Shown: positions 3,797 through 52,691 of the stretch, one piece after another
Layout of the letters: every line of letters starts with the position of its first letter
Numbering within the stretch: the first letter of the stretch is position 1
From: Gemmatimonadales bacterium
Lineage (GTDB): Bacteria; Gemmatimonadota; Gemmatimonadetes; Gemmatimonadales; GWC2-71-9
DNA: 64,000 bases
NCBI GenBank assembly: GCA_037189525.1
Contig: JBBCJC010000002.1
Span: 768,001 to 832,000 of the forward strand
Reading direction: 5' to 3'
Translations under genes and position numbers: made by a program
The notes under the pieces: model-generated
Seen by the model: only the letters and a program-made list of their open reading frames with translations
What the model was told of the DNA's origin: nothing
Databases searched by the model: none

Positions 3797-3803
3797 GGGG
3801 CCG

Positions 3804-32799: not shown

Positions 32800-33524
32800 A
32801 AATGCGGCGGCGGGGTCGGGTCCCCGCTCTTATGGATGCGGACCGACCAGGCGGGATCGGTCCGCGCGACCGCGGCTGCGTAGCCATCGGGCGCCTCGAT
32901 CCAGGCGCCGTGGACCGGCGAGGTCCCTTGGTTGGTGACGATGGTGAAACGGTCGCCGGGCCGAGCCTCGTCGAACGCCACCGAAAAGGCTTCGAGCGGG
33001 ATCGACAGCCCGCCGCCTAACGCCTTGATGTAGGCTTCCTTGGCAACCCAGTGCTGATAGAAGAGCGTCCGATGCCGCGCCGGGTCGGCCGCCGCCAGGC
33101 GGGCTCGTTCGCGCGGTGAGAAGACCGTCTCGGCCAGTTCGAGCAGGTCGAAATGATCGTGGCCGTGTTCGATGTCGATGCCGACGTCATGGTCGAGGGT
33201 CAGCGCGATCAGCGCCTCTGACCCCGAGTGCGACAGGTTGAATCGGATCTGGCTGCCCAGGTGGGGTGCGAGTTCCGGTTTCCCGTGCGGGCCCGTGACG
33301 ATCTCGACGTCGGCGGGGGCGAGGTCCAGGTAACTGCCGAGCACCTGGCGAAGGGTGCCGCGGGCGGTGACGTAGACCGACCGGTCCTTGTCGAAGACGA
33401 AGCGGGCGGCGCGTGTTCGTTCCGCGGCGGTGAGCGTCGAGTGCAGCGCGGCGGGAACGGTGGCCGGTACCGAGACCGGCCAGACCTCGATCCGGTCAGT
33501 GTGAAGCGGCGGAGGCGGCGTCAC
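32796..33524 (-). CDS. Sfp-type 4'-phosphopantetheinyl transferase
   Basis: Start trimmed to GTG at 33524; GKP, FNLSHS, VGIDIE, WVAKEAYIKALG. Confidence 0.93.
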   Translation of the reverse strand: MTPPPPLHTDRIEVWPVSVPATVPAALHSTLTAAERTRAARFVFDKDRSVYVTARGTLRQVLGSYLDLAPADVEIVTGPHGKPELAPHLGSQIRFNLSHSGSEALIALTLDHDVGIDIEHGHDHFDLLELAETVFSPRERARLAAADPARHRTLFYQHWVAKEAYIKALGGGLSIPLEAFSVAFDEARPGDRFTIVTNQGTSPVHGAWIEAPDGYAAAVARTDPAWSVRIHKSGDPTPPPHF

Positions 33525-35142
33525 GTTGCTCGCTTGGTCGCCAGCTGTCGACGATCTGGCCGTAGTCCAGTTTGATGACGCGGTCGCCCAGGTCGAAATA
33601 TCGATCGTCGTGGGTGATGACGACGACCGTCTTGCCGCGGGCCTTGAGCTCGGGCAGCAGCTCCGCATAGAAAATCTGCCGATAGCCCGGGTCCTGATCG
33701 GCGGCCCATTCGTCGAAGACGTAGACGGGACGGTCTTCCAGGTATGCCGCCATCAGGGCGAGCCGGCGTTTCTGTCCCTGTGACAGCGCCGTCGTCGACA
33801 GGACGCCGTCCTTCACGCTCACCTTGTGGTCGAGGCCCAGGCGCACCAGGTATTCACGGGCGCGGGTGTCGATATCGCCGTCGCCCAGACCGGTGACGTC
33901 GGGGAACAGGAAAAAGTCGGAGAAGACGGTTGCGAACTGCTGGCGATAGTTCTCGCGGTTCGCCGCGGTGACGGTCTCGCCGTTCAGCGCGATCGATCCC
34001 TCATCGGGTGGGTACAAGCCCGTCAGCAGTTTGACGAAGGTCGATTTGCCGCTTCCGTTGCCGCCGATGATGAAGACGAGTTCGCCGGGATGCAGCGTCA
34101 GGTCGACGGGGCCTAGTCCGAAGCCGCCGTTTGGATCGGAGCGATCGTAGCGGAAGGCCACGTTGCGGAACTCGATGGTGGCGCCGGGGCGATCCGTTCC
34201 GGCGAGTGGCGCATCTTCGGTGACGCGCTCCAGCGAGAGGCCGAGTTCGTCGATCCGGGCCAGCGCCGTCTGGCCGCGGTGGAAGATCGGAAGCGCGCCT
34301 AGCAGGGACCAGACGGGCCCCATGGCGTAGAGCGCCACGAAGGCAAACCCGGTCAATGATCGAGTCGAGGTCTCGAAGATGGCGGGCAGGGCAAAGAGCA
34401 TGACCCCCATGATCAGGAAGAACATGCTCTGGGTCCAGCCGTCGGCGGCGAGGTAGTGACGGGCCGCGTCGAGGCTCAAGCCGCGCAATCGCTCGGTCGT
34501 CTCCGGGATACTACCAGCCAGCAGATGATCGCGCCGCGCGCGATTCATCTTGATCTCTTTGATACCTTCCGTGATGGTGCGGTAGTGCCGGAACAGGACA
34601 TCGCGTTCGCGCCGCGCCGCGGTGATGGCTCCCGAAGCTCGGCGCATCAGCACTTTGTAGCCGAGCGCGGCCAGGATTCCGAAGATCACGAGCGCCAGCG
34701 CCGACGCCCATGAGAGAGCGGCGAGGTAGATGGTGCATCCCAAGAGCACCGCCGCATTGGTGATCACGGTCGGGATGGCCTGGACCGATGCGGAAAGGGT
34801 CCCGACGTCGTCCGTCAACGTGGTCATGATGCGGGCGGCGCCGATCTCTTCGAGCGTCCGGAACGGCGTTTCGACGACACGCGCACTGAGTTGATTGCAG
34901 AGGCGCAGGATTGCCTGCTGCGCATAGGTCGCGAGGTTCCACTGAGCAATCAGGTTGGTCGCGATGCGCGCCAGCGCGACGGCGATGAAGCCGACGACGA
35001 TCAGCGGGAGATTGGTGGTGTGGAGGGCGGCATTGACCAGCGCCACGAACCCGGCGCTGGCCAGGCCGCCGACGATACCGGCCAGGATGACGGTGATGAT
35101 GCCGCGTCGTCCGGTCCGGAACAGGAAGGCCAGCAGGTTCAT
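33496..35142 (-). CDS. Cyclic-peptide export ABC transporter (PvdE/SyrD/YojI family)
   Basis: TM domain; GIKEIK; GGNGSGKST; LSQGQKRR; FDEWAADQDP; ITHDDRY. Confidence 0.93.
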   Translation of the reverse strand: MNLLAFLFRTGRRGIITVILAGIVGGLASAGFVALVNAALHTTNLPLIVVGFIAVALARIATNLIAQWNLATYAQQAILRLCNQLSARVVETPFRTLEEIGAARIMTTLTDDVGTLSASVQAIPTVITNAAVLLGCTIYLAALSWASALALVIFGILAALGYKVLMRRASGAITAARRERDVLFRHYRTITEGIKEIKMNRARRDHLLAGSIPETTERLRGLSLDAARHYLAADGWTQSMFFLIMGVMLFALPAIFETSTRSLTGFAFVALYAMGPVWSLLGALPIFHRGQTALARIDELGLSLERVTEDAPLAGTDRPGATIEFRNVAFRYDRSDPNGGFGLGPVDLTLHPGELVFIIGGNGSGKSTFVKLLTGLYPPDEGSIALNGETVTAANRENYRQQFATVFSDFFLFPDVTGLGDGDIDTRAREYLVRLGLDHKVSVKDGVLSTTALSQGQKRRLALMAAYLEDRPVYVFDEWAADQDPGYRQIFYAELLPELKARGKTVVVITHDDRYFDLGDRVIKLDYGQIVDSWRPSEQRDAASAASH

Positions 35143-38100
35143 GCGGCTTCTCCGTCGGGTCGCCCTGGCTCGGAGCGATCCAGCACTTCGCTCAGGCGTT
35201 TCCCGAGGTTGACGACGTGCGGTCGTGTCAGCATCAGTCCGGAATCACCGCCCCCGATCGGGATGACTTCCTGGCCATCGGTTGCGCGCGCGGCCCAGGC
35301 GAGCCGCCGGTCACCCAGCCCTTCATCCGGTGCGCGGTCCGAGAAGAAGTGGACGATCCGCCCGCGATAGGTGCCGGGTGAATGGCTCTTCATCGCAAAA
35401 TAATTGGCTTGCTGCACGTCGGTCCGGGTTGCTTCCTGCGCACGGGCCTCGCGGATCGGTTCCGCCTTGGCCTCGGGTACCGGACGGAATACGGCGCGGA
35501 GCCGGGCCCAGCGCCGTTCCGCCGGTTGCTGCCACCAGACGAGCACCCGGTTGATCAGGCTGGCCGGCTTCCGCAGCATCCGATGGCGCGTCAGCTGGCG
35601 GCCGAGTCGGTCTCGCCAGGTGAGGGGACGAGGGGCGGGAACGTCGAGCAGGGCCAGAAGTTCGACCTGTTCCCCCGCCTGCTGGAGCTGAGTGGCCATC
35701 GTGTGAGCGATCATCCCGCCCATGCAGCCGCCCGCCAGGCGATACGGGCCATGCGGCTGTATCTCACGCAGCGCGGCGAGGTATTGCCGGGCCATCTCGT
35801 CGATGGTGCGCAGGAGCGGGGTCCGCCCGTCCAGGCCGATGGCCTGCAGGCCGTAGAACGGCTGCTCGGGGCCGAGTTCTCTCGCGAGGTCGACGTAGTT
35901 GAGGACGTTCCCGCCGATACCGTGGACGCAGAACAACGGCCGCCGGCTGCCACGGGATTCGATGGCGACCAGCGCGCCGGCCGGCCGGGCCGGGCCGGCA
36001 TTGCCCAGGACCTCTGCAAGCTGGGCAACCGTCGGAGCGGCCAACAGGGTCGCCAGCGAGAGCCGCTGACCGAACTCGCGCTCGATCGATGCAAACAGGC
36101 GCACCGCAACCAGGGAATGGCCGCCGAGGGAGAAGAAGTCGTCGTGGATGCCGACGGCCGGGACCTCGAGCGCCTCTTCCCAGAGGCGGCAGAGTCGCAG
36201 CTCGTTGGCGTTACGCGGCGGTGTCCGTTCGATGCTCGCGGGCGCCGACTGCAGTCGGGGAAGGGCGCGGAAGTCGACCTTGCCGTTCGGAGTCCGGGGC
36301 AACGCGGGCAGGATGCCGATGGCGCTGGGGACGGCGTAGGCCGGCAGTAGCGCAGCAAGCGCACGGCGGATCTCATCGAGGTCCGGTGGCGTGTCCCATG
36401 CGCCCGCCAGGTAGGCAACCAGGCGGATCTGGTCCGGCTCGGCGCCGTCGGTCGACGCAACGGTCTCGCGGACTCCCGGTATCCGAGCGAGGGCAGCTTC
36501 GACGTCGCCCAGCTCGACCCGGAATCCCCGGATCTTGATCTGCCGATCGGCGCGGCCGATGAAATCGATCGCGCCGTCGATGCGGTAGCGCCCCAGGTCG
36601 CCGGTGCGGTAGACCCGATCGTCGCTGAGCCCAGTGTATCCGTTTGGCGGGAACCGTTGCGCCGTGAGGTCGGGCTCCCGATGGTAGCCGGCGCTCAGGT
36701 AGGGCGTCCGGATCACGATTTCACCCGGTTCGCCGATCCCGGCGAGCTTGCCGTTCCGATCGAGGACCAGCAGTTGCACGTCGGCGATGCCGCGTCCGAT
36801 CGGAATGCTGCCCGTCTCCGGCGCAGCGGAACGATCGAGGTCGGCGTAACCCATCAATTGCGGCGTTTCGGTCGCGCCGTAGCCGTTCACGATCCGGGCC
36901 TCGGGTGCCAGCCGAGCGAACCGGTTGAGGCGGGCTCGGGTCAGCCGATCGCCGCCGAAGCAGACGAGGCGGAGCGAGGGAAGCGACAACGAGGCGTCGC
37001 CGGGATCCGCGATCAGTTCGACCATCGGCGGGGTCAGATGGGTGACGGTGACCCGCGCATCGCGCAGCCAGCGGCCGAGGTGGCCGGGGCCTTCGATCAG
37101 GTCACCGTCAGGTACGCACAGGGCGCCGCCGACCCAGATCGGCGCCAGCAGGTCACGCAGGAGCGGGTCGTGCGCCAGGCCGGACAGCATGCTGATCCGG
37201 TCCGACGGTCCGAGCTCGAAGGTTTCCTGGTACCACTCGCAGAAGTGGCCGAGTGGGCGGTGTGTGCCGACGATGCCTTTGGGCGTGCCGGTGGTTCCGG
37301 AGGTAAACGCCAGGTACGCAGTGTCGTCGGGTCCGACCTCGACGGCGAGTGGCGTTGCCGGGTGCTGCCGGGCGGCGGTGTGTGCCAGGTCGGCGCCGCT
37401 GCCGAGCGGAACGCGGGTCCAGCGTCGTTCGGCGATGATTGCTTCGAGGTCGGGGGCGAGCGGTGTCTTCTGATCGAGCCGGATCAGGATCGAGGGATCA
37501 GCCAGGTCGATGATCTGGGCCAGCCGTTCGGTCGGATAGGCCGGATCGAGGATCACGAACGCCGCACCGGTTTCCAGGGTGGCGAGGATCGCGAGCAGGA
37601 GGCTCGGATCGCGCGCAGCAAGCACTGCCACGACGGTGCCCGGACGAGCGCCCTCTTGCGCCAGCGCATTCGCGACGCGCCGGACCGCCTGATGCAACTC
37701 GCCATATCGCCACTGGTAAGCCCCGGCATCGAGCGCGATGTGGTCGGGGCTCTGCTCGGCGTGCCGAGCCAGCTGTGTGCCGACCGTGCCGGCCCAGGTG
37801 CTGGCCAGCGGAGCGACCGGGTCCGGAAGGACGGTTCGCGCCTGGGGCGTGACGAGGGAGATAGTCTCGATGGCGGCGTCCGGGTCCGAGGCGACGGCAT
37901 CGACCAGTTGGCTGTATTGTGCCAGCATCTCATCGATGCGGGCGGCGTCGAACAGGTCGGCGTTGTAGACCAGGGTCAACCGAAGCCCGGGACGATGGTC
38001 GACCGCGTACAGGGTCAGGTCGAACTTGGCCTCATCGGGAACGCCGCCACGGTGTTCGATGGCGACGCCGGGCAGCTGAAACGTATTGGTGGCAAACGCC

Positions 38101-39281
38101 AACAAGTTGAAGAACACCTGGAACAGCGGAGTCCGGCTCGGGTCGGGCGGCGGCTTCAACTCGGCGATGACGCGCTCGAGCGGGACGTCCTGGTGCAGGT
38201 GGGCTTCGCGGGTCGCGGTCCGCATCTGGCCCAGCAGGTCGCGGAAGCTGGGCCGGCCCTCGAATCGGGTGCGCAGCACGACCGTATTGACGAAGAACCC
38301 GATCAACCCCTCGGTTTCTGGGCGGCCGCGCCCGGCATATGGGGCGCCGATCAGAATATCGTCCTGGCCGGAGAGCCGATGCAGCAGGGCGCCGAACGCG
38401 CCAAGCAGCGCCGCGAACGGGGTCGTCTGTTCGGCTCGGCACAGCGTCAGCAGAGCCTGTTCGGTCGCTCCGCTCAGGTCGAAGGTGCGCTGTCCCGCCC
38501 GGAAGGTGCGCACGGGAGGACGGGGCCGGTCGGTCGGCAGGTCCAGCGCGGTCGGCGCGCCGGCCAGGCTGTCCCGCCAGTAGCGCACATGGGGCTCGGC
38601 ATCCGCACCTTCCGCCCAGGCGCGATGCCAGGCGGCGAAATCCCGGTACTGGATTGGCAAGTCGGGCAGGCTCGGCGCGCCGCCGGCGATCAGGGCCTTG
38701 TAATGGGCGGTCAGTTCGCGGAAGAAAACGTGAATCGACCAGCCATCCGAAATGATGTGATGGAATACCATCACGAAGATGTGGTCGTCCGGTCCGAGTC
38801 CAATCAGGGTAGGGCGGAACAGCGGTCCCTGGTGCAGGTCGAACGGCGCCGCCATCAATCGTTCCGCCGTGTTCCATCCCGCCTGCTCGCGCTCGCCTGG
38901 CGGGAGCGTCGTCAGGTCGATGGCCTCGATCGAGACGCTCTCGGGCGGGTGCGCGACCTGGGTGGCGCCCTCGGGTCCGGAGACGAACGTCGTCCGCAGG
39001 GTTTCATGACGGCGTACGATTTCGCGGATGGCCGCTTCGAAAGCCGGCCGATCGAGCGGTCCCCGGAGCCGGAATGCGAACGGGATGGTGTAGGCGGTAC
39101 CATCGGGTTGCAGCTGATCGGCCAGCCACAGGCGCTCTTGATAGAGGGAGAGCCGGGCGGGGCCGCTTCCGTCTACGCGGGGCAGGGTGGCCTTCGTCTG
39201 GTCCGAGCCGGCGGCGGCCCGCTCGAGCAACAGTTGCTTGAGCCGGCGGCGCTTTTCGGCAACCGGATCTGGCGTCGTCAT
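35139..39281 (-). CDS. Single-module termination NRPS (docking-C-A-T-TE)
   Basis: Start trimmed to ATG at 39281; C HHIISDGWS; A FTSGTTGTPKG, YRTGDL, NGKVD; T FFSLGGHSL; TE LAGGCMGG. Confidence 0.95.
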   Translation of the reverse strand: MTTPDPVAEKRRRLKQLLLERAAAGSDQTKATLPRVDGSGPARLSLYQERLWLADQLQPDGTAYTIPFAFRLRGPLDRPAFEAAIREIVRRHETLRTTFVSGPEGATQVAHPPESVSIEAIDLTTLPPGEREQAGWNTAERLMAAPFDLHQGPLFRPTLIGLGPDDHIFVMVFHHIISDGWSIHVFFRELTAHYKALIAGGAPSLPDLPIQYRDFAAWHRAWAEGADAEPHVRYWRDSLAGAPTALDLPTDRPRPPVRTFRAGQRTFDLSGATEQALLTLCRAEQTTPFAALLGAFGALLHRLSGQDDILIGAPYAGRGRPETEGLIGFFVNTVVLRTRFEGRPSFRDLLGQMRTATREAHLHQDVPLERVIAELKPPPDPSRTPLFQVFFNLLAFATNTFQLPGVAIEHRGGVPDEAKFDLTLYAVDHRPGLRLTLVYNADLFDAARIDEMLAQYSQLVDAVASDPDAAIETISLVTPQARTVLPDPVAPLASTWAGTVGTQLARHAEQSPDHIALDAGAYQWRYGELHQAVRRVANALAQEGARPGTVVAVLAARDPSLLLAILATLETGAAFVILDPAYPTERLAQIIDLADPSILIRLDQKTPLAPDLEAIIAERRWTRVPLGSGADLAHTAARQHPATPLAVEVGPDDTAYLAFTSGTTGTPKGIVGTHRPLGHFCEWYQETFELGPSDRISMLSGLAHDPLLRDLLAPIWVGGALCVPDGDLIEGPGHLGRWLRDARVTVTHLTPPMVELIADPGDASLSLPSLRLVCFGGDRLTRARLNRFARLAPEARIVNGYGATETPQLMGYADLDRSAAPETGSIPIGRGIADVQLLVLDRNGKLAGIGEPGEIVIRTPYLSAGYHREPDLTAQRFPPNGYTGLSDDRVYRTGDLGRYRIDGAIDFIGRADRQIKIRGFRVELGDVEAALARIPGVRETVASTDGAEPDQIRLVAYLAGAWDTPPDLDEIRRALAALLPAYAVPSAIGILPALPRTPNGKVDFRALPRLQSAPASIERTPPRNANELRLCRLWEEALEVPAVGIHDDFFSLGGHSLVAVRLFASIEREFGQRLSLATLLAAPTVAQLAEVLGNAGPARPAGALVAIESRGSRRPLFCVHGIGGNVLNYVDLARELGPEQPFYGLQAIGLDGRTPLLRTIDEMARQYLAALREIQPHGPYRLAGGCMGGMIAHTMATQLQQAGEQVELLALLDVPAPRPLTWRDRLGRQLTRHRMLRKPASLINRVLVWWQQPAERRWARLRAVFRPVPEAKAEPIREARAQEATRTDVQQANYFAMKSHSPGTYRGRIVHFFSDRAPDEGLGDRRLAWAARATDGQEVIPIGGGDSGLMLTRPHVVNLGKRLSEVLDRSEPGRPDGEAA

Positions 39282-39741: not shown

Positions 39742-39898
39742 TTATCTATGGGGTTGCGGGAGTTCTGGCCCTCGTCGGTTTACCGGACCACCTAGCGAAT
39801 GACTTGCGTTCGGGGCGTCGAAGGCTGGCCCGCGCCGGGGTCTCGTTCGCCTCCGTTGGTGGGAAATCCGGGCGAGGTTGCACAACCAAGGGCACTCA

Positions 39899-40699
39899 AT
39901 GTTGCGTCGCGAAGAAATCCAGGCATCGAACGGCTGGGTAGTCGCTGTCGGACGGAATCCGGCGGCGACGGTGCGCCTGGTGTGCTTCCCGCCTGCCGGG
40001 ACCGGGGCCGCATCCTACCGCGGCTGGTCTGAGTCGGCGCCTGGGTGGCTCGAAGTCTGTGCCGTTCAGTTGCCTGGCCGGGAAACCAGACTTCGCGATG
40101 TCCCGATGACTGACCTCGATCGGCTGATCCCGGAGCTCGGGAAAGCGCTGTTGCCGGTTCTGGACCGGCCGTTTGCCTTTTACGGGCACAGCCTGGGCTC
40201 GATCATCGCGTTCGAGACGGCGCGATGGCTCCGGCACCAGGGTGCTCCGCTGCCCGCAGCCATGTTCGTCGGCGCCAGCCGTCCTCCCCAGTTTCCGTGG
40301 CCCGATCCGCCGGTTCGGGATCTGCCGGACCTCGAGCTGCTCGAGGAGGTCAATCGCCGCTACGACTCGGTGCCCGATGTCGTGATGGCGGAACCGGAAC
40401 TCCGCACGCTGCTCACGCCCGCGCTTCGGGCCGACATGGCGTTGATCGAGACCTACCGGTATCGATCCGAAATGCCCTTCGATTTTCCGATTCAGGCCTT
40501 CTGGGGCGCCGCGGACCGGAAGGTGGCGCAGGCGGATATGGCACAGTGGCAGGAGCAGACGCTTGGTGCGTTCGAGCTCCAGCGCTTTGCGGATGGGCAT
40601 CTTTTCCTGTTGCCTCGCCGGCAGGACATCGTTGCGGCAGTCGCATCGCTGCTGACCCGATCGATGGCGGTCGGGTCTGAACGTCCCGGACGCCCCTGA
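39899..40699 (+). CDS. Type II thioesterase
   Basis: LVCFPPAGTGA, QLPGRE, GHSLG, LRAD, DGHLF. Confidence 0.93.
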   Translation: MLRREEIQASNGWVVAVGRNPAATVRLVCFPPAGTGAASYRGWSESAPGWLEVCAVQLPGRETRLRDVPMTDLDRLIPELGKALLPVLDRPFAFYGHSLGSIIAFETARWLRHQGAPLPAAMFVGASRPPQFPWPDPPVRDLPDLELLEEVNRRYDSVPDVVMAEPELRTLLTPALRADMALIETYRYRSEMPFDFPIQAFWGAADRKVAQADMAQWQEQTLGAFELQRFADGHLFLLPRRQDIVAAVASLLTRSMAVGSERPGRP

Positions 40700-43600
40700 T
40701 GACGGACGGCGTGTCGCCACCTCGAATCGAACCTCGCGCTCGCGCGCCGATTGCGGTGGTGGGTATCGGCTGCCGGTATCCCGGTGGGATCGTCGACGCG
40801 GCGTCGTTTTGGCGCGTCGTCGCCGGCGGTGTCGACACGATTACCGACATCCCGGCCGATCGCTTCGATCTGGCGCGCTGGTACGATGCCAGACCCGGGA
40901 TGCCGGGGCGGATCGGCAGTCGCAAGGGCGGATTCGTTGGGCCGGTCGATCGCTTCGATGCCTATCTGTTCGGAATTTCGCCGCGGGAGGCGGAGCGGCT
41001 GGATCCGCAGCAACGGTTGCTGCTCGAAGTGGCCTGGGAGGCCTTTCTCGACGCCGGGATGGATCCGTCGGGTCAGGAGGGCAGCCGCTGCGGCGTCTAT
41101 GTCGGCCAGTGGGTCGGCGAGTACGAAAGCCGCCTCTTTGCCGACCCGACCACGATCGACTTCCACTCGACCCAAGGCACCGGGCGGTACGCCAGCTCCG
41201 GACGATTGTCGTACACGTTTGGATTGTGCGGACCGAGCGTGACGCTCGATACGGCCTGCTCGTCGTCGCTGGTTGCTACGCACCTGGCGATCAACAGCCT
41301 GCGGTCGGGCGAAACGAATGCGGCCCTGGTCGGCGGCGTCAATCTGATCCTGCAGCCGCACACCACGATTGCCTACTCGCGCGGCCGGATGATGGCCTCC
41401 GATGGCCATTCGAAGTTCGGCGATGCCTCGGCCAACGGCTATGTCCGGGCGGAGGGGGCGGCGGTGCTGCTGCTCAAGCGGCTCGATGACGCCGAGCGCG
41501 ACGGCGACCGAGTCTATGCCGTGCTGCACGGCAGCGCGATCAACAACGATGGGCGCAGTTCCGGATTGTTCGGGCGACCGAGCCGGAGCGGCCAGGTCTC
41601 GCTCCTGGTCGATGCGTATCGGGACGCGGGAGTTCCAGCGCAGCAACTGAGTTTCGTCGAAGCGCACGGAACCGGTACCCGGGCCGGCGATCCGGTCGAG
41701 CTCGATGCGCTGGCCGAGGTGGTGGGGCGGGAGCGATCGGCGCCGCTCTGGGTCGGGTCGATCAAAACCAACATCGGGCACACGGAAGCGGCGGCCGGTC
41801 TGGCTGGTCTGATCAAAGCATCGCTCAGCCTCTATCACGGGGTGGTGCCGCCGAGTCTGCATTTCCGCGAACCGACATCGTCGTTCGACTGGAGCGCCTC
41901 GTCGTTGCAGGTGCCGACGGCGGCGGTGACGCTGGAGGGCGATCGCGACCGGTGGCTCGGTGGGGTGACCTCGTTCGGGATCTCCGGCACCAATGCCCAT
42001 GTCGTCGTCGGAACCGGTCCTCAGCGCGCTCCGGTTCCGGTGCGCTCGGCTGGGCTATTGCTTCCTCTTGCCGCGCATATCCCCGCGGCCCTGGGTCAGT
42101 ACGCAAAGGCTCTGGCCGATCGGTTCGAGCACGCTACCGCAGCGGAAGTCGCGCGGACGGCCGCTGTGCTCGCTCGGCGGTCGAGTCTGCCCCATCGCGC
42201 CGCGATTGTGGGTGGCGACGTAGCCGCCGTAGTCGCCGGGTTACGCGCGCTGGCGGACGGTGAACCGGCGGCGGGCCTGGTTACCGGGGAAGCACCGATC
42301 GAGGGGCGGCATCGGACGGCGCTGGTCTTTCCGGGCCAGGGTGGGCAGTGGCTCGGCATGGGGCGGCGACTGCTCGAGACCGAGCCGGTGTTTGCGCAGA
42401 CCGTGGCGGCAATCGATGAGGTGCTTGCTCCGCTGGTCGACTGGTCTGTGACCGAGCAGCTGCAGCTCGATCCGGCCGATCCCACGTGGCAGCTCGATCG
42501 CATCGACGTGATCCAGCCCGTGCTGGTGGCGCTGGAGATGGCGTATGCGGCGCTGCTGCGCGACTACGGGATCCGGGCGGACGGCGTGGTCGGGCATAGC
42601 ATGGGCGAGGTCGGCGCCGCCTGGTATGTGGGTGCACTTTCGCTGGCTGATGCGATGACGGTCATCGTACATCGGAGCCGGCTGCTGCGCACTGTGGCCG
42701 GCGCCGGAGCGATGGCGGTGGTCGAACTTGGTGATGCCGATGCTCGCGCGGCTATCGGAGCGCGGACCGACCGAGTCGGTGTGGCAGTTCGGAATGCGAG
42801 CAACAGTTCGGTCTTGAGCGGTGATCCCGATGCGGTGGGCGAAATCATCGCTGAACTGGAAGCACGCGGCGTTTTCACCAGGTATGTGAAGGTCGATGTC
42901 GCTTCGCACAGCCCGCAGATGGATGCGCTGACGGGTCCTCTGGTCGACGCATTGGGCGCCATCGTGCCTGGAGCGACGGCGATCGCGATGTATTCGACCG
43001 TACTGGCTGAGCCGCTGGCTGGCAGCGGAACGACGGCCGCGTACTGGGGACAGAATCTTCGCGAACCGGTCCGCTTTGCGGAGACGATCGACCGGATGCT
43101 GGCCGACGGCTACGACACTTTCATCGAGGTTGGTCCGCATCCGGTGCTCACGTCGGCGGTGACGCGCGTAGCTGAGGATCGCGGCGCCGAGGTGCGGGTG
43201 TTGTCCACCGGCCGCCGGGATGAGGATGCTCAACTCGAGTTCCTCAATCTCCTGGGTGAGTGCCATGTCGCCGGCCTTCCGGTCGACTGGCATCGGGTCT
43301 ATCCCGGGCCGATCGACCACGATCTCGAGTTGCCGCCGTTTCCGATGGTGCGGGAGCGTTACTGGTTCGATCCGGGGCTCGAGGCCGTTACCGAGGGCGG
43401 GGCAACCGGTCATCCGCTCTTGGTTGCGCCGTTCGCCGCGGCAGTCGGTGTACGCGGCTGGGAAGCCTCGGCGCAGCGGATCGGAACGACGTGGCTCGCG
43501 GATCATGTGGTGCGGCAGTCGGTTCTCTGGCCCGCTGCGGCGAGTGCGGAAGGGTTGCTGGCCGCCGTGTCGGATGCGGCAGGCGGCAACTGGTTTCTGC

Positions 43601-46600
43601 GCAATGTCCGGCTCCATGAGGCGCTGCCGGTCGAGCCGGCGCGGCCGGTCCGCCTGCAGTGGTCCGAACGGGGCGATGCCAAGGGGCGGCATGTCTCATT
43701 GCACGCGCGTGAAGGTGGTGACGAGTCCGGGTGGCGCCTGATTGCGGATGCGACAGCCATTCCGCGTGTATCGGACCGGCAGGCCGTAGCGATCGATGCG
43801 CCACACGCTGCTGATTTGGTCGAGTCCGGCGAGGATTTCTACCGCCGGTTGCGACTGCGCGGGTTGGAGTATGGGCCGGCTTTTCAGACGATTACGGAAG
43901 TCCGATCGGGTAAGGACAACGCGGAAAGTCGGTTGGCGTTGCCGCAGCCGGTCCTTACCGATCCGGGTCTCGAGCGCTATCGGGTGCATCCGGTCCTCAT
44001 CGATGCTGCGCTGCAGACGATCATCGCGGCTGCGGTTGGTCCGGATAACTCGAGGGTGACTACGCCGTTGCCGGTCCGCATCGGAACCTTCGAGGTCGGC
44101 TCGGCCTCGTGGCAGAGTGGGCCGCTCGCTGTGCGGGCGAGCGTTACCGATCGGTCGCCGGGCGGATTTACGGGCAATGCCGTTGTTTCGGATTCCGAGG
44201 GTCGGCTGATCGCGACCCTCGAATCGGCCGGGTTTGCCTGGACCGGAGTCGAGACAGGGACGATCGACGAGACGTTCTTCTCGCTCGATTGGGAGCCGGT
44301 GGAGTTGGTCAATGCCGAGGTGGAAGGGCGCCGGTTCGTCGTGATTGGCGATCGGGAAGCGAGCCTGGCCGGATCACTCCGGGCTCGGGGCGGCCAGGTC
44401 GACGCGGTGTCCTCGTTGGATGCGTTGACGGCCTTGGGGGACCTGCCCGGAGCGTGCGATGTCATCTGGTGCGTCGATGGCGAAGGATCGAGCCAGGATC
44501 AGGTAATGCGCGGCGAGCAGCTCGTCACGCAGGCGGTTCGCCTGGGGCAGTGGTGTACGGAACGAGACAGCCAGGTCGCGCGGGTTGTCGTGGTGACACG
44601 TGGCGCGGTTGGGTTTGGGGGTGACGGGGCCTGCGACGTCGCGGTTGCGGCCACACGCGCCGTCGGCCGGGTGCTCGGTCATGAGGTGCCGGGGCTGCTG
44701 GTTCAGGCGGTCGACTTGCCGGTCGATGGAAGCTGGGGAGAGGCGCTTCCGGCCTCGATCGCCGCGTCGGCCGATGCGGAGCTGGCGTATCGTGACGGCC
44801 GATGGTACGCCGCACGTTTGGGTTCGTTTGCGGTACCTGAGGCGCGAGTTGGCGTAGATGAGTCGTATCAGTTGACGCTCTTGTCTCCCGGATCGCCCGA
44901 TCAGCTCGAGTGGGTTGCTCGCGGGCGGCGCGCCCCGGGGGCTGGGATGGTCGAAGTCGAGGTCGAGGCGGTCGGCCTCAACTTCATGAATGCCCTGAGC
45001 GTGCTCGGCGCTTATCCCGGCGCGCCGAACGGGGTTGGTTCACTCGGCCTCGAAGGCGCCGGCCGAGTCTCTCGGGTTGGCGAAGGTATTAGCCATGTGG
45101 CCCCTGGCGATCGGGTGCTCTTCGTGGCGCCGGACGCCATGGCCCGCCATGTCGTGACCTCGGGTGAGTTGGTCGTACCGGCGCCGACCACCGATCCCGC
45201 CGAGGTTCTCGCGGCGCTGCCGATTGCGTACCTGACGGTCCACTACGGTTTGGGTGTTCTGGCGCGGCTCTGCCGGGGCGACCGCGTCCTGATTCACAGT
45301 GCCGCGGGCGGTGTCGGGCTCGCGGCCATTGCCTATGCCCGGATGTGCGGTGCAGAGGTCTATGCGACGGCGGGCACGGCCGAGAAGCGGGAATGGCTCA
45401 AGTCGCTCGGTGTGCATCATGTATTCGACTCGCGCTCGCTGGCCTGGGCCGATGCCGTGCTCGAGGCGACGGGTGGCGAGGGCGTCGATGTCGTGCTCAA
45501 CTCCCTGGCGGGTCAGGCGCAGGAGCGTGGCCTCGACGTGCTGCGGACGGATGGCCGTTTCGTCGAGATCGGCAAGCGTGACATCTATGATGATCGCGCG
45601 CTTTCGCTGGGGGCATTTCGGAACGGTCTTGCCTTCTTTGCCGTCGACCTGGACCGAATGATTCGGGAGCGTCCCGATCGGGTCGGAGCGATGCTGCGGG
45701 ACGTCAGCGTGATGATCGGGGCGGGGCAGCTCGAGCTTCTGCCGGTCGAAACGTTCCCGGCGGATCAGGTCGGCGATGCTTTCCGGCGGATGTTGCCAGG
45801 TACGCATCGCGGGAAGCTCGTGGTCTCGCTCGCGGTGGCGCCGTCGCGACTCGCGCTCGGCCCGGCCGTTGCGCCCATTCGGGATCATGGCACGTATCTC
45901 GTCACCGGCGGACTGGGCGCTTTGGGTCTGGTCGTGGCGTCGTGGCTGGTCGAGCGCGGTGCGGGCGCGATCGTCCTGGTCGGGCGTCGAGCGCCGGATC
46001 AGGCGACGAAAGCCAAACTCGACGAACTGGCCCGGCGGGGTACCAGGATCGAAACACGTGCATTCGATATCGGCGATCGCGATGCCGTGACGAGCCTGTT
46101 CGCTTCCCTGAGCGGGCTTCCGGCGCTTCGTGGCGTCTTCCACCTTGCCGGTACGCTCGACGATGCGCCGATCTCGGCGCTCACGCCCGAGCGGATTGCG
46201 GTGCCGTATCGGCCCAAGGCGGCGGGCGGGCTACATGTTCTCGATGCGGCGCGGGCGCATCCGCTCGATTTTGCGGTCGCGTTCTCGTCGGTGGCGTCGC
46301 GGTTCGGGACACCCGGGCAGGCCAATTACGCGGCGGCCAACGCCGTACTGGATGCGCGCGCGGCTAATACAGAAGCACGGTTGCTCAGCATCAACTTCGG
46401 GCCGTTCGCATCGATCGGTCTAGCCGCGGCAGACCCTGCGCGTTTGAGTGCGCTGGCGCGGCAGGGGTTCGGCGCGCTCGACGGCGAAGAGGCTCTGCTC
46501 GCGCTCGATCGGTTGCTCGGCGCGGGTGTTCGCGGGGCGGTGACGGTTGCGCGGTTCGATGCTGAGCGCTGGGTGTCGGGTAAGGACGACGCGGATCGGC

Positions 46601-47055
46601 GATGGGTGGCCCGATTGCTGGATGGCCGGACTGATGAACCTGCGCAGCCAGTGATGGTGTCGTGGCGGGGGCAGGTCGAGGCTATTCCGCCCGGGCGCCC
46701 GCGCCGCCGTGAGCTCGAACGGCTGGTGACTGCGGAGGCCGCTGCGGCGCTCCGCCTGCCGCCCGCGCAGATCGGAGTCGACCGCCCGCTGCGGACGCTG
46801 GGGATGGATTCGTTGCTGACACTCGAGTTTCGCAAGCGGCTCGAGCGCGCGACCGATCTCCGGGTCGGCGCCCCCGTCTTTTTCAGTCATCCCACGGTGG
46901 CGGCGTTGACCTCGTATCTGGCGGAGCGGTGGGAACTGCCGCTCGATGCCGCGGCGGTTGCGGACGATAGCGAGCTCGAGACGCTGCTCGACGATCTGTC
47001 GGCGCTGAGTGAGGAAGAACTCGATGCGTTGCTGGGCGACGGAGGTGGCGCGTGA
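40699..47055 (+). CDS. Type I PKS, KS-AT-DH-ER-KR-ACP
   Basis: KS DTACSSS/HGTGT/GHTE; AT RIDVIQP, GHSMG, VASH; DH HVVRQSVLWP, DAALQ; ER IHSAAGGVG; KR GGLGALG, LDD, YAAAN; ACP GMDSL. Confidence 0.95.
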   Translation: MTDGVSPPRIEPRARAPIAVVGIGCRYPGGIVDAASFWRVVAGGVDTITDIPADRFDLARWYDARPGMPGRIGSRKGGFVGPVDRFDAYLFGISPREAERLDPQQRLLLEVAWEAFLDAGMDPSGQEGSRCGVYVGQWVGEYESRLFADPTTIDFHSTQGTGRYASSGRLSYTFGLCGPSVTLDTACSSSLVATHLAINSLRSGETNAALVGGVNLILQPHTTIAYSRGRMMASDGHSKFGDASANGYVRAEGAAVLLLKRLDDAERDGDRVYAVLHGSAINNDGRSSGLFGRPSRSGQVSLLVDAYRDAGVPAQQLSFVEAHGTGTRAGDPVELDALAEVVGRERSAPLWVGSIKTNIGHTEAAAGLAGLIKASLSLYHGVVPPSLHFREPTSSFDWSASSLQVPTAAVTLEGDRDRWLGGVTSFGISGTNAHVVVGTGPQRAPVPVRSAGLLLPLAAHIPAALGQYAKALADRFEHATAAEVARTAAVLARRSSLPHRAAIVGGDVAAVVAGLRALADGEPAAGLVTGEAPIEGRHRTALVFPGQGGQWLGMGRRLLETEPVFAQTVAAIDEVLAPLVDWSVTEQLQLDPADPTWQLDRIDVIQPVLVALEMAYAALLRDYGIRADGVVGHSMGEVGAAWYVGALSLADAMTVIVHRSRLLRTVAGAGAMAVVELGDADARAAIGARTDRVGVAVRNASNSSVLSGDPDAVGEIIAELEARGVFTRYVKVDVASHSPQMDALTGPLVDALGAIVPGATAIAMYSTVLAEPLAGSGTTAAYWGQNLREPVRFAETIDRMLADGYDTFIEVGPHPVLTSAVTRVAEDRGAEVRVLSTGRRDEDAQLEFLNLLGECHVAGLPVDWHRVYPGPIDHDLELPPFPMVRERYWFDPGLEAVTEGGATGHPLLVAPFAAAVGVRGWEASAQRIGTTWLADHVVRQSVLWPAAASAEGLLAAVSDAAGGNWFLRNVRLHEALPVEPARPVRLQWSERGDAKGRHVSLHAREGGDESGWRLIADATAIPRVSDRQAVAIDAPHAADLVESGEDFYRRLRLRGLEYGPAFQTITEVRSGKDNAESRLALPQPVLTDPGLERYRVHPVLIDAALQTIIAAAVGPDNSRVTTPLPVRIGTFEVGSASWQSGPLAVRASVTDRSPGGFTGNAVVSDSEGRLIATLESAGFAWTGVETGTIDETFFSLDWEPVELVNAEVEGRRFVVIGDREASLAGSLRARGGQVDAVSSLDALTALGDLPGACDVIWCVDGEGSSQDQVMRGEQLVTQAVRLGQWCTERDSQVARVVVVTRGAVGFGGDGACDVAVAATRAVGRVLGHEVPGLLVQAVDLPVDGSWGEALPASIAASADAELAYRDGRWYAARLGSFAVPEARVGVDESYQLTLLSPGSPDQLEWVARGRRAPGAGMVEVEVEAVGLNFMNALSVLGAYPGAPNGVGSLGLEGAGRVSRVGEGISHVAPGDRVLFVAPDAMARHVVTSGELVVPAPTTDPAEVLAALPIAYLTVHYGLGVLARLCRGDRVLIHSAAGGVGLAAIAYARMCGAEVYATAGTAEKREWLKSLGVHHVFDSRSLAWADAVLEATGGEGVDVVLNSLAGQAQERGLDVLRTDGRFVEIGKRDIYDDRALSLGAFRNGLAFFAVDLDRMIRERPDRVGAMLRDVSVMIGAGQLELLPVETFPADQVGDAFRRMLPGTHRGKLVVSLAVAPSRLALGPAVAPIRDHGTYLVTGGLGALGLVVASWLVERGAGAIVLVGRRAPDQATKAKLDELARRGTRIETRAFDIGDRDAVTSLFASLSGLPALRGVFHLAGTLDDAPISALTPERIAVPYRPKAAGGLHVLDAARAHPLDFAVAFSSVASRFGTPGQANYAAANAVLDARAANTEARLLSINFGPFASIGLAAADPARLSALARQGFGALDGEEALLALDRLLGAGVRGAVTVARFDAERWVSGKDDADRRWVARLLDGRTDEPAQPVMVSWRGQVEAIPPGRPRRRELERLVTAEAAAALRLPPAQIGVDRPLRTLGMDSLLTLEFRKRLERATDLRVGAPVFFSHPTVAALTSYLAERWELPLDAAAVADDSELETLLDDLSALSEEELDALLGDGGGA

Positions 47056-50000: not shown

Positions 50001-52691
50001 CGGCTGTGGGAGCGGTCCTGCCGGATTCTGGCCGATGACGGTGTGCTGGCCGAGTCGGGGCGTGGGAGCTGGCGGGTGGTCGGGAAACCGTCGGGTCAGT
50101 CGGCTGTGGTGGCTGGAGTCGAAGGGGCGCTGCTCGAACAATGCGCCGCTCCGCTGGCCGATGTGCTGGTGGGGCGGGCCGATCCGCTGGCGCTGCTCTT
50201 TCCCGAGGGCGGGACGGTGTCTGCAGCGGCCATCTACACTTCGACGGCCAGTGCGCGGCGATTGAACGAGGCGGTGGCTGCCGCGGTGCGCCAGATCGTG
50301 ACGAATCGCGGCGGCGCGCCGGTGCGGATCGTCGAAGTGGGTGCCGGTACCGGGGCCACGACCGCGCACGTGCTTCCCATCCTGCCGTCGGGAAGTCGCT
50401 ATCTCGCGACCGACGTGTCGCCGACGTTGCTCGAAGGGCTGGCCCAGCGGTTCGGCGCGGTCGAGGGGGCGTCGTTCCATCGTCTGGATGCCGAACGGTC
50501 GCCTCGCGCGCAAGGATTGCCGACGCAGTGTGCCGATCTGGTGATTGCCTCGAACGTCCTGCACGCGACCAGAAATCTCAACGAGACACTGGCCCATGTG
50601 CGTAGCTTGCTCGCACCCGGTGGCTTGCTCATCCTGATCGAGACCACGGCGCCGAGACGATGGATCGACCTGACTTTCGGCTTGACCGAGGGGTGGTGGC
50701 GCTACGACGATCGCCGGACCGACTCGGCGCTGCTCGACCCCGCCGGCTGGGCAGCGGAGCTCGAGCAATCCGGGTTCGAGTCTGCCGCCGCATTGGGACA
50801 TGACGCAGGCGCCGTGCATGCGCAGGCCCTGATCATGGCGCGCCGCGATCGGTCGCCCCAGCGTATGGGGCCGATCTGGACGCTCACCGCCGCTGATGGA
50901 GCGCCGGCGGAGTGGCACGATCGGTTAGATCGATTCGTTTCCGTCGATCCGGTCGACTCGAGTGCGGGCACGACGGATTGGTCGGCCGAGGTTGCGAAGG
51001 CAGTCGCGCGTCATGGCGAACGGTGGGCGGGAATCGTTTATGACGCATCCCGGCTCCCTGATACGCCGACTGCTGCGGTTCAGGCTGCGCATCAGATAGC
51101 CCGGATTACTACCGCGCTTCGCGCCAAGACCGGCAGCGCGGCCCGGCTTGTCGTGGTCACCAACGGGTCGATAGCAACCAGTGGCGCCGAATCTTCGCAT
51201 GCTGCGCAGGCGACGCTCTGGGGGATGGGCCGGTCGATTGCGTTGGAAGCATCGTCGATCTGGGGCGGGTTGATCGATCTCGATCCGAGCCACGATGCCG
51301 CTCGGCAGGCCGGAACCGTTGCCGCGGGCTTGCTCGATCCGGATGAGGAGGATCAGGTGGTCTGGCGCGCCGGATCGCGGCTGGTACCCCGCTTGGTGCC
51401 GGATCGTGATCCGGCCCCGGTCGCACTGTCGCTTCGGGCAGACGCCAGCTATCTGGTTACCGGCGCGTTCGGCGGGTTGGGTCCCAAGCTGATTCGATGG
51501 CTGGCCCGCAGTGGCGCGCGGCATCTGATCCTGATCGGTCGCTCCGCACCGTTGCCATCCGACTGGTCGTCTGTCGCCCCCGACTCGGCGTCGGGTAAAG
51601 CGATCACCGAGATTCGCGCCGCTGAGGCCGATGGGGTGCAGTGCACGGTGGTTGCGGCTGACGTGGGGAATCACGACGCCATGGCGAGGATCTTCGATGA
51701 AGCTCGCGGACGCGGCTATCCGGTACGAGGGGTCGTCCATGCGGCGGCATCGATTCGGTTTGCGGGACTCGAGGAGCTCACCGAGGCCCGTCTCGAGGAA
51801 GCTCTGCATGCCAAGTCCTCCGGCGCCCTGGTCCTCGATGCCCTGACGCGCGATGGCCTGAACGATTTCCTCGTCTTCTTCTCCTCTGGCACCACGATCC
51901 TGGGGGCCAGTAAGCTTGCTGCGTATGCTGCGGCCAATCAGTTCCTGGCTGCCGTGGCCCAGGAGCGGGTCCGGGCCGGGTATCCGGCCACCGTGGTCGA
52001 CTGGGGCGCCTGGGACGAGATTCGCCTGCTTGGCAGCGATGGTACGGAATCGATGGCGGCGCTCGGATTCGAGGTGCTGGATGACGCGCGCGCGCTGGCG
52101 ACGCTGGCCGGGTTGATCGGGGAGAACAGCCCGCCGCGTTTCGTGGCAGCGCTCGACATCGGCCGGCTTCGGGAGGCGTATCAGGTGCATCGGCGGCGAC
52201 CGATGCTCGATGGTTTGCCGGCGGCAACGACGTCGGCAGCCGAGGAGATCACCCCGGCGGCGACACCGGCATCGAGTCCGTCGGCATCACTTACCGCCTT
52301 GATTGCCGGGTGTACGCCGTCTCGAGCATTGGCTCGGCTCACGGATTTCGTGGTCGGTTCGGTCGCCCATGTGCTGGGAGTCGCGCCGGATACGGTCGAT
52401 CCTTCGCGCGGGCTCTTCGATCTGGGGCTCGACTCCCTGATGGCAGTGGGACTCCGAAACCGACTCGAAGCGGCCGGCGCCGGGTCGTTACCGGCCACGC
52501 TGGTCTTCAACTATCCGACGGCCGCGGCCATTGCGGAGTTGCTGAACACCCGGCTTGGCGCGTCGGTCGCATCAGGTGACGATGTCGTGGCGGTCGAGCC
52601 GGCGAGTGCGGTGGCGGCTGAAGCCGATGAGGATGTGCGGGCGCAGCTCCTGGCCGAGCTCAAGTCGATCGATCTCGGAGTCGAAACGTGA
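47052..52691 (+). CDS. Type I PKS, KS-AT-cMT-KR-ACP
   Basis: KS DTACSSS; AT GHSVG, YAFH; MT VEVGAGTG, NVLHAT, GLTEGWW; KR GAFGGLG, no LDD, YAAAN; ACP GLDSL. Confidence 0.95.
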   Translation: MSDLRQRVASLTPEQRAALSKRLGERTAPVREPIAIVGMSCRLPGADGLDAYWDLLVEGRDAVGPPPPGRRDHLRTEAGYLSAVDGFDAEFFGVPAREARSMDPQQRLLLEVAWEALEHAGIPADRVRGSSAGVFVGIHSHSSDYHLLQLATPGEVDPYGSTGAAHSIVANRLSYWLDLRGPSMAIDTACSSSLVAVHQACLSLRAGETDLALAGGVNLILLEAATTAFDRLGILSPGARCRVFDAAADGIARGEGVGVVVLKRLSDAERDGDRILAVVRGSGVNQDGASNGLTAPNGAAQVALLKKVWSDSGISGAQLSLVETHGTGTPLGDPIEVAALSDAIGAAGAQASIWLGAVKSQIGHLEAAAGIAALIKAVLCLTRRLVPAVCHFQTLNPQIELVGSGLAVPTRVEALPAHGRLLAGVSSFGFGGTNAHLCVESGPERAIESVEPAPVLVLPLSARSGSAVRELGMQLTGRLRSSSDADLRNIVATAALRRTHHDHRLAAVGVDRDSLVADLERRMTDPVWPASRDGIVFAFGGQGTQWSGMGRELRESERVFRATFDAIADRYRSLSGVDLVELIDGRDAGRLAETGYAQPAIFAVQAGLVALLRSWGIVPDRVVGHSVGEIAAAHAAGILSLEAAVDVVYHRGRLMQSVPRGGAMIQVGLAEAELRAVLDGFGPEVAVAALNAPAVSVAAGPREVVDALASRLQADGVSVQRVPVEYAFHSPAVAPVTEPLVQALRGVVPGAGSIPIVSTVTGLPARAGDFTPEYWARNVRETVRFAPAIRRSLEDGAGIVLEISPHPALLAGVAAVADQLGRPVATVAVMRRDRPVALALRQAVAALYAAGVDPDWSALVAAGAPVDLPRYPWQRTRHWLGAPDVRALGNNVLGTGSTVPGVTYRVEWQASAAQVGLPSSGEPVAVPSISMPPTEDEGALLASLERRSGVLIAEAFARLGVLDLADPISWDTAMGLGVLPRYRRLWERSCRILADDGVLAESGRGSWRVVGKPSGQSAVVAGVEGALLEQCAAPLADVLVGRADPLALLFPEGGTVSAAAIYTSTASARRLNEAVAAAVRQIVTNRGGAPVRIVEVGAGTGATTAHVLPILPSGSRYLATDVSPTLLEGLAQRFGAVEGASFHRLDAERSPRAQGLPTQCADLVIASNVLHATRNLNETLAHVRSLLAPGGLLILIETTAPRRWIDLTFGLTEGWWRYDDRRTDSALLDPAGWAAELEQSGFESAAALGHDAGAVHAQALIMARRDRSPQRMGPIWTLTAADGAPAEWHDRLDRFVSVDPVDSSAGTTDWSAEVAKAVARHGERWAGIVYDASRLPDTPTAAVQAAHQIARITTALRAKTGSAARLVVVTNGSIATSGAESSHAAQATLWGMGRSIALEASSIWGGLIDLDPSHDAARQAGTVAAGLLDPDEEDQVVWRAGSRLVPRLVPDRDPAPVALSLRADASYLVTGAFGGLGPKLIRWLARSGARHLILIGRSAPLPSDWSSVAPDSASGKAITEIRAAEADGVQCTVVAADVGNHDAMARIFDEARGRGYPVRGVVHAAASIRFAGLEELTEARLEEALHAKSSGALVLDALTRDGLNDFLVFFSSGTTILGASKLAAYAAANQFLAAVAQERVRAGYPATVVDWGAWDEIRLLGSDGTESMAALGFEVLDDARALATLAGLIGENSPPRFVAALDIGRLREAYQVHRRRPMLDGLPAATTSAAEEITPAATPASSPSASLTALIAGCTPSRALARLTDFVVGSVAHVLGVAPDTVDPSRGLFDLGLDSLMAVGLRNRLEAAGAGSLPATLVFNYPTAAAIAELLNTRLGASVASGDDVVAVEPASAVAAEADEDVRAQLLAELKSIDLGVET

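Follow-up and report, generated by a model that had tools for sequence, protein, structure and literature searches.

The window analysed here, a 64,000-nucleotide stretch of a Gemmatimonadales genome (contig JBBCJC010000002.1, positions 768,001 to 832,000), encodes a nonribosomal peptide synthetase (NRPS) that ends in an unusual thioesterase (TE) domain. Judged by sequence comparison, this domain is a real and conserved variant of the type I TE in which the nucleophile is a Cys and the catalytic His is replaced by an Asx-Ser-Gly loop. The His-less Cys TE is apparently undescribed. Homology hits yielded 452 distinct TE domains with a length of 200 residues or more; a Cys elbow paired with a loop reading [D/N][S/A]G was found in 129 of them, and these 129 domains are called the family below. 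Because the hits were gathered with His-less queries, the family counts do not represent population frequencies. The domain and its key residues, of which the Cys was also scored in a main clade of 143 related TEs, are the following.

35139..35960, minus strand: type I TE domain with a Cys nucleophile and without the catalytic His (PF00975, E 4e-28; mean pLDDT 90.5)
35724..35726, minus strand: Cys79, nucleophile elbow (Cys in 143/143 main-clade members and in 4 close orthologous sequences)
35643..35645, minus strand: Asp106, triad acid position I (Glu in 65% and Asp in 30% of the family vs. Asp in 98% of Ser/His TEs)
35304..35306, minus strand: Arg219 of DRRLAW, family-specific (120/129, or 93%, of the family vs. 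28/214, or 13%, of Ser/His TEs)
35238..35246, minus strand: Asp239-Ser240-Gly241, family-specific, in place of the His loop (Asp 109 and Asn 20; Ser 124/129, or 96%, and Ala 5; Gly 129/129, or 100%)
35217..35219, minus strand: His248 of RPHV, an unlikely substitute base (48% of the family vs. 44% of controls)

The earlier note, made from the letters of the window, had pointed to the Cys elbow, LALLD, the GDSG loop and RPHV, and translation of the minus-strand frame 35139-35960, which contains LAGGCMGG, LALLD and GGGDSGLMLTRPHV, bears out all four. Cys79 (codon TGC at 35726-35724) lies in LAGGCMGG, whose core GGCMG has the GxS/CxG form of the type I TE elbow, and LALLD supplies Asp106 (35645-35643). 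The loop at the His site reads GGGDSGLML, with Asp239 at 35246-35244 and Ser240 (TCC) at 35243-35241, and His248 of RPHV is encoded at 35219-35217. The reported GDSG at the His site also held, with one refinement: the loop carries a one-residue insertion relative to PGDH. MAFFT and HMMER place Asp239 in the His column (the register on the N-terminal side), and alignment from the C-terminal side, with Met at His+3 and Pro at His+7, sets Ser240 at the His position. The AlphaFold model agrees with this second register, with a predicted short helix that begins at Ser240 and has Asp239 as its cap. The catalytic His is missing in either register.

The fold itself was modeled with confidence as that of a thioesterase. 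The AlphaFold model, built from a 36-row alignment, has a mean pLDDT of 90.5 and reaches about 95 over residues 231-250. It shows an alpha/beta-hydrolase fold that carries a long four-helix lid, located C-terminal to the T domain as in PF00975 type I TEs. An FFSD motif follows beta7 in this TE and its orthologues, and the family has no conserved acid there. The folds nearest to the model are those of the skyllamycin NRPS TE (PDB 7CRN/7DXO), the NocB TE and the Pks13 TE; 7CRN gave a Z of 21.8 and a root-mean-square deviation of 3.5 over 205 residues, and the Foldseek comparison gave an E of 2e-16. The skyllamycin TE has a Ser nucleophile, and likeness of fold says nothing of function. A predicted complex of the TE with the neighboring exporter scored 0.00 in two runs for which controls were not folded, and it was not used as evidence.

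An assembly error or frameshift was ruled out because orthologues of 74-91% identity keep both motifs and because a contig from an independent run (X2 record 7) has the same letters throughout the Cys and Asp106 codons, with 0 other letters. The orthologues, at 91, 78, and 74% identity, retain both the Cys elbow and the GDSG loop. Ratios of nonsynonymous to synonymous substitution (dN/dS; Nei-Gojobori, three genomes) were 0.11-0.18 for the TE, 0.12-0.19 for the C domain and 0.27-0.44 for the A domain, and these are rough estimates because dS was 1-1.5. Cys79, Asp106, Arg219, Asp239, Ser240 and Gly241 are unchanged in the three genomes, most of them despite synonymous codon changes. These comparisons indicate that the TE is under purifying selection and is not decaying. 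The suggestion that the paired changes reflect specialization and not random decay thus gained support from the low dN/dS of the TE and from the 129 domains with the same pairing.

Every observed loss of the His was in a Cys-TE: the His column holds His in 214/214 scorable Ser-TEs vs. 55/224 Cys-TEs (left out were 3 rows that are truncated and 11 that have a different residue at the elbow). The main clade, recovered by FastTree after the nucleophile and loop columns were removed, has a support of 0.95 and consists entirely of Cys-TEs, and His stands in the His column of 0/142 scorable members. Free trees placed the studied TE and three close relatives outside this clade, where they form a long branch close to Ser/His TEs, with weak support. 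The tree holding the studied TE with the main clade was 8.7 log-likelihood units better and was not rejected (p-AU 0.65; 46 rows, one long branch dropped, LG+G4), and a single origin of the two is plausible from these alignments. Other His-less lineages are present as well, for a total of about 10 state changes on the tree, and each of them has the Cys. A further 17 Cys/DSG domains came from a third search, among the 100 parsed in its new hits.

The family signature consists of a GxC[MFITL]G elbow, a D-x-R-x-x-W motif and the [D/N][S/A]G loop with its one-residue insertion, and the studied TE fits it. The elbow Cys is invariant across family sequences that are only 30-40% identical. An Arg at alignment column 210 is present in 115/129 members; the studied protein has an Arg one position earlier. 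The triad Asp described as retained is indeed present here as Asp106, but Asp is not a family trait: position I is Glu in 85, Asp in 39, Gly in 3 and Gln in 2 of the 129, an acid in 124 members. At the His of HxxGG, 86% of the family has Pro. No candidate replaces the triad across the family, since neither the RPHV His (48%) nor the position-I Asp (Glu in 65%) is conserved throughout the family, and no column of the family has His in more than 49%. The RPHV His had been put forward as a substitute base, and it was rejected with a frequency close to that in ordinary Ser/His TEs (44%). The HGIGG His, found in only 9% of the family, was also rejected, and Asp239 as an obligatory base was weakened by the Asn found in 20/129.

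Named family members came from Nitrospira/Nitrospirales, Rokubacteria/Methylomirabilota, Vicinamibacterales, Deltaproteobacteria, Burkholderiaceae, Rhodospirillaceae, Gemmatimonadota, Acidimicrobiia and Steroidobacteraceae, and nearly all are metagenome-assembled. Two other types of His-less Cys-TE were observed. The second lineage, mostly from Acidobacteria, has a GYC[ML]GG elbow and P[VG]YP[AG] at the His loop (loci L037, L043, L055, L056, L060, L062, L063, L071, L072, L077 and L084; proteins P0043, P0045, P0054 and P0057). In L055 and L071, a stand-alone T-TE of this lineage precedes a gene resembling class IV aminotransferases and then another T-TE, of the Ser/His kind, with glycosyltransferase-like genes nearby. 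The third type, from Dormiibacterota, combines GDCLGG with PTYFTT (L036:4658-10807, L081, P0032 and P0046) and ends a protein with the order formyltransferase-A(luciferase-like monooxygenase insert)-T-TE.

Published TEs, cited here from the accessible portions of each paper, include several with a Cys nucleophile. The closest solved relative by sequence is the AB3403 TE of Acinetobacter baumannii (PDB 4ZXH/4ZXI), which is the best PDB match of the family profile (E 1e-79 over T-TE). It shares the C-A-T-TE module, a Cys elbow (GWCFGG) and an acid at position I with the studied TE, but it keeps the PGDH His. The pathway and product of AB3403 are uncharacterised according to the accessible part of a review that describes, in that part, only Asp-His-Ser/Cys triads (PMC10510592). 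The ObiF1 TE (obafluorin beta-lactone) and the SulM TE (sulfazecin beta-lactam) also use a Cys nucleophile, form an acyl-S-Cys intermediate and are aided by an Arg. They differ in having a Cys-His-Asp triad, Asp at position II and substrates with a beta-nucleophile, and the earlier statement that both keep the His agrees with the published accounts (PMC6668435, PMC11298585). The studied TE has the Cys nucleophile of this strained-ring group and differs from it in three features: the His is missing, the acid is at position I, and the residue predicted from the A code has no beta-nucleophile, with no tailoring gene for one seen in the cluster; on these features it lies outside the group.

The TEs of MacB/PmxB (macolacin, polymyxin) and BulbE (bulbiferamide) are Cys type I TEs that form amides and suppress hydrolysis. 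Unlike the studied TE, they have a native Cys-His-Asp triad (the His of BulbE TE is kept; PMC11792885, PMC11536411) and a known intramolecular nucleophile, and the accessible accounts report no [D/N]SG loop. LgnA of the legonmycin pathway, a shuttling type II TE, is an example of a TE fold that serves acyl transfer and not only hydrolysis (PMC8748450). LgnA stands alone and moves aminoacyl groups between T domains, whereas the studied TE is C-terminal and its cluster has no downstream carrier. No His-less NRPS TE was found in a literature search that largely left out subscription journals and supplements, so a remark in an alignment figure is possible.

The TE ends the termination module of a hybrid cluster that also contains polyketide synthase (PKS) genes and a 4'-phosphopantetheinyl transferase (PPTase) gene.

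35139..39281, minus strand: termination-module NRPS, docking helix-C-A-T-TE, 1380 aa (intact frame; ATG start inferred, frame open from 39479)
36279..37769, minus strand: A domain, motif-derived code DPRHCGGQL(K), predicted to load a dicarboxylic amino acid or its amide
33496..35142, minus strand: PvdE/SyrD-type cyclic peptide export ABC transporter (TIGR01194, 471 bits, cut-off 286), overlapping the NRPS stop codon
32796..33668, minus strand: PPTase, downstream of the NRPS
39878..40699, plus strand: type II TE, its motifs GHSLG and DGH indicating that both Ser and His are present
40699..47055, plus strand: PKS1, KS-AT-DH-ER-KR-ACP, without an N-terminal docking segment
47052..52691, plus strand: PKS2, KS-AT-cMT-KR-ACP, no DH, a hydroxyl predicted to remain
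52688..58918, plus strand: PKS3, KS-AT-DH-ER-KR-ACP
58915..63273, plus strand: PKS4, KS-AT-cMT-ACP, no KR
63270..64000, plus strand: beginning of PKS5; the genes PKS5-PKS8, together with an EamA gene, reach past the window, to G000:C2:859242

The type II TE and eight single-module cis-AT PKS genes run divergently from the NRPS. No TE or reductase was found in any PKS gene of the line, so the C-terminal TE is its only integrated release domain, as it is in the sister clusters. The C domain motif HHIISDG is intact. The A domain resembles TIGR03443 with a score under the cut-off. In published work, codes with DPRH stand for aminoadipate or Asn (PMC12283262, PMC3547906), so the predicted substrate is a dicarboxylic residue or the amide of one. 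No aminotransferase, hydroxylase or sulfotransferase gene was seen in the cluster. The candidate for an internal nucleophile in the chain is the predicted PKS2 hydroxyl; no aminotransferase domain was found. Among orthologues, the A domain is less conserved (53-61% identity) than the flanking C and TE domains (69-80%), possibly as a result of an exchange of A domains.

Of the 21 same-genus genomes searched, 2 have a syntenic cluster, G005 (where the contig ends in PKS2) and G021. The genome of the window, G000, has eight PKS genes with the EamA gene between the sixth and seventh (G000:C2:845362-852716), and G021 has seven on contig C14 with the EamA gene last, which suggests module gain or loss. 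Elsewhere in the window, a ClpB-like AAA+ ATPase gene is followed by genes for an FHA-domain protein and a Ser/Thr kinase (33-4619). Two more NRPS or NRPS-PKS loci are present in the same genome (G000:C1:223373-230641 and C2:1092296-1094380).

The same layout recurs within the phylum. In a sample of 401 genomes of the window's phylum, the C-terminal profile matched in 9. Besides G000 and G005, Cys/DSG TEs were found at five loci in G216, G220 (two), G241 and G303; the other matches were two Ser/His TEs and one Cys-TE with the His (G160). The full clusters share a divergent arrangement of type II TE plus PKS genes on one side and NRPS-TE on the other. In G000, G021, G216, G220, G241 and G303, where the NRPS-TE is followed by the ABC transporter and PPTase genes, the PKS core is conserved (a fully reducing module, followed by KS-AT-cMT-ACP that lacks a KR and next by KS-AT-DH-cMT-ER-KR) and the peptide tails vary by genome. 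The first KS has no loading module or docking segment.

Linkage with the exporter was also scored in metagenomes, where a motif scan detected 64 loci. Of 36 loci with a terminal Cys/DSG TE and a readable elbow, the next gene encodes a PvdE/SyrD-type exporter in 26, a PPTase in 2 and another product in 8, compared with an adjacent exporter in 0/83 terminal non-DSG TEs from genome-scan controls, which come from a different collection and different taxa; shared descent accounts for part of the link. After near-duplicates were collapsed, the exporter was adjacent in 19/28 loci at 90% identity and 13/17 at 70%. A genome scan with a generic pattern gave 3 family loci of 80. A search for well-studied producers covered the phyla of Corallococcus and Moorena, with 401 genomes each and no more than 12 candidates scored in any one genome. 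Its best matches, 8 and 3 respectively, were Ser/His TEs throughout, a result that does not indicate absence. The best 15 of 580 plasmid records were 32-36% identical, and a search of the ESM Atlas gave generic thioesterase clusters only.

Family TEs end several kinds of protein: PKS-NRPS hybrids, FAAL-ACP-C-A-T-TE single proteins, A-less C-T-TE proteins and A-T-TE fusions with a thiamine diphosphate (ThDP) enzyme. One FAAL-ACP-C-A-T-TE protein with the family motifs is encoded by a Nitrospira sp. M1 genome (WP_447971595.1). A-less docking-C-T-TE proteins with a His-less Cys TE include P0052, P0130, P0151 and P0152, one of them named Nitrospirales. The ThDP fusions belong to a two-gene system (L022:8102-19160 and L064:7907-18656; P0017, P0137, P0154 and P0163-P0171) in which A-T-TE(Cys, His-less)-ThDP comes first and the second gene encodes A-T-C-A-T ending in Ldh_2 (PF02615) instead of a TE or reductase. 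To our knowledge, neither fusion appears to have been described, no literature search having been made on them. Terminal A codes of the family were DAF/DAL, presumably Val-like, in 50 of 82 parsed and DIL, for Gly, in 13; aryl/keto-acid-like and DPR codes and codes that we label Orn/Lys-like were also detected.

The reading that we tentatively prefer, on sequence comparison and published analogy, is that the TE may be a His-independent acyl transferase that takes the chain onto Cys79 and passes it to an amine without a His, giving an amide. The finished polyketide-acyl-amino-acid chain would move from the T domain to Cys79 by thioester exchange, a step reported to be energy-neutral (PMC6668435) and one for which the elbow thiolate may need no base. 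With the His gone, activation of water would be poor, and the acyl-S-Cys would be expected to last until it meets a better nucleophile. The Asp/Asn-Ser-Gly loop and Arg219 may bind and orient the acceptor, e.g., a carboxylate- or phosphate-bearing amine. An amine fits best because MacB-TE H218A still macrocyclizes through an amine, at a reduced level, whereas ObiF, which uses an alcohol, loses activity about 80-fold with H1284A (PMC13288461, PMC6668435). The acceptor here would be a common cellular amine, since the cluster holds no gene for one; in Orn/Lys-loading relatives it would be the side-chain amine of the last residue, and in the A-T-TE-ThDP fusions it would come from the fused enzyme. 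FAAL-ACP-C-A-T proteins ended by a family TE include a Gly-type, with no internal nucleophile, and an Orn/Lys-type, with a side-chain amine available. Acyl transfer is favored because it fits the Gly-type, Orn/Lys-type and ThDP-fused members alike. The invariant Cys, the residues conserved in place of the His, the low dN/dS and the position as sole integrated release domain also count for it, and the base-free, Arg-assisted closure put forward for SulM (PMC11298585) is a further precedent. Transfer to an acceptor, which the earlier note proposed, or substrate-assisted release remains the leading class of mechanism.

Several observations weigh against the acyl-transfer reading. The about 80-fold loss in ObiF H1284A, to the level of C1146A, indicates that a Cys-TE can depend on its His even for acylation (PMC6668435), and by analogy this result would cut against every catalytic reading. 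No tailoring or acceptor-making gene was found in the full sister clusters, and the intact-looking type II TE in each cluster is an alternative exit route. An independent-pairs test of His loss vs. Cys had 5 starred pairs and a sign-test p of 0.5 and was underpowered, and the sampling with His-less queries bears on this reading as well.

Macrocyclization without a His is a less likely explanation. The PKS2 hydroxyl would attack acyl-S-Cys79 to give a cyclic depsipeptide, with about 19-21 ring atoms if the genes are collinear, and Asp239/Ser240, the position-I acid or Arg219 would relay the proton. A KR-without-DH module occurs at position 1 or 2 in 6/6 complete clusters (G000, G021, G216, G220, G241 and G303), a count made without a control. 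Modular PKSs often have a module with only a KR at an early position, which weighs against this reading. The long lid of the model is consistent with cyclization, the neighboring transporter belongs to a cyclic-peptide export family, and Cys-TEs suppress hydrolysis and favor cyclization (PMC13288461). On the other side, alcohol attack in ObiF requires the His (PMC6668435), and no such hydroxyl is present in the FAAL-Gly-type and ThDP-fused members. Asn at position 239, with both Asp and Asn occurring within the ThDP-fused group, argues against a general base.

Slow or assisted hydrolysis, which we consider unlikely to a similar degree, would yield a free N-acyl amino acid through water activated by an acid or through an oxazolone or anhydride formed by the substrate; the DPRH-type residue would supply a spare carboxylate or amide. 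Most family members share an N-acyl-aminoacyl thioester as their end substrate, the position-I acid is kept in nearly all of them, and no extra gene would be needed, as in the bare clusters. Ser/His TEs, however, hydrolyze well, and a conserved switch to Cys with loss of the His would be an odd route to that end. A change of Cys to Ser makes ObiF, MacB and BulbE more hydrolytic, not less, and MacB C89S only hydrolyzes (PMC13288461).

Improbable in our estimate is a domain without catalysis that binds or parks the chain or docks the exporter, release being left to the type II TE, to cellular thiols or to spontaneous reaction. The missing His, the variable position-I acid, the exchange of the HxxGG His for Pro, the intact-looking type II TE that heads each PKS operon and the tight linkage with the exporter gene are in keeping with it, as is the ObiF His mutant that behaves as the Cys mutant (PMC6668435). 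An elbow Cys that is invariant at 30-40% identity is hard to explain without covalent chemistry, and the catalytic core is under purifying selection.

Closure of a beta-lactone or beta-lactam as in ObiF and SulM, which the earlier note had raised, is very improbable: the Cys nucleophile and the base-free, Arg-assisted closure proposed by the SulM authors (PMC11298585) speak for it, but the His is absent, the acid is at position I, terminal A codes are mostly Val- and Gly-type without a beta-nucleophile, no aldolase, hydroxylase or sulfotransferase gene was seen in the clusters, and the nearest solved structures are the AB3403, skyllamycin, NocB and Pks13 TEs. Dieckmann release was rejected as a family function; there is no upstream beta-keto amide, the KR motifs of the penultimate PKS modules of relatives look intact, and other members have a plain amino-acid module.

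NRPS TEs are described in the accessible parts of reviews and mechanistic papers as needing a Ser/Cys-His-Asp triad. More than 100 domains that have the Cys but not the His and are under selection point to release chemistry beyond current models, and annotation would wrongly call them inactive. They raise the question of whether the His is dispensable once the nucleophile is a Cys, and of what resolves the acyl-enzyme. The family motif provides a sequence signature for mining uncharacterised PKS-NRPS clusters. If the TE is a hydrolysis-resistant transacylase, it would be a possible biocatalyst for amide ligation. With somewhat more reserve than for the single domain, we suggest that the family may be an undescribed and widespread class of Cys-only transacylases, with an Asx-Ser-Gly loop and an Arg, that would ligate chains to outside acceptors such as amines or ThDP-made acyloins and would be coupled to a PvdE/SyrD-type exporter.

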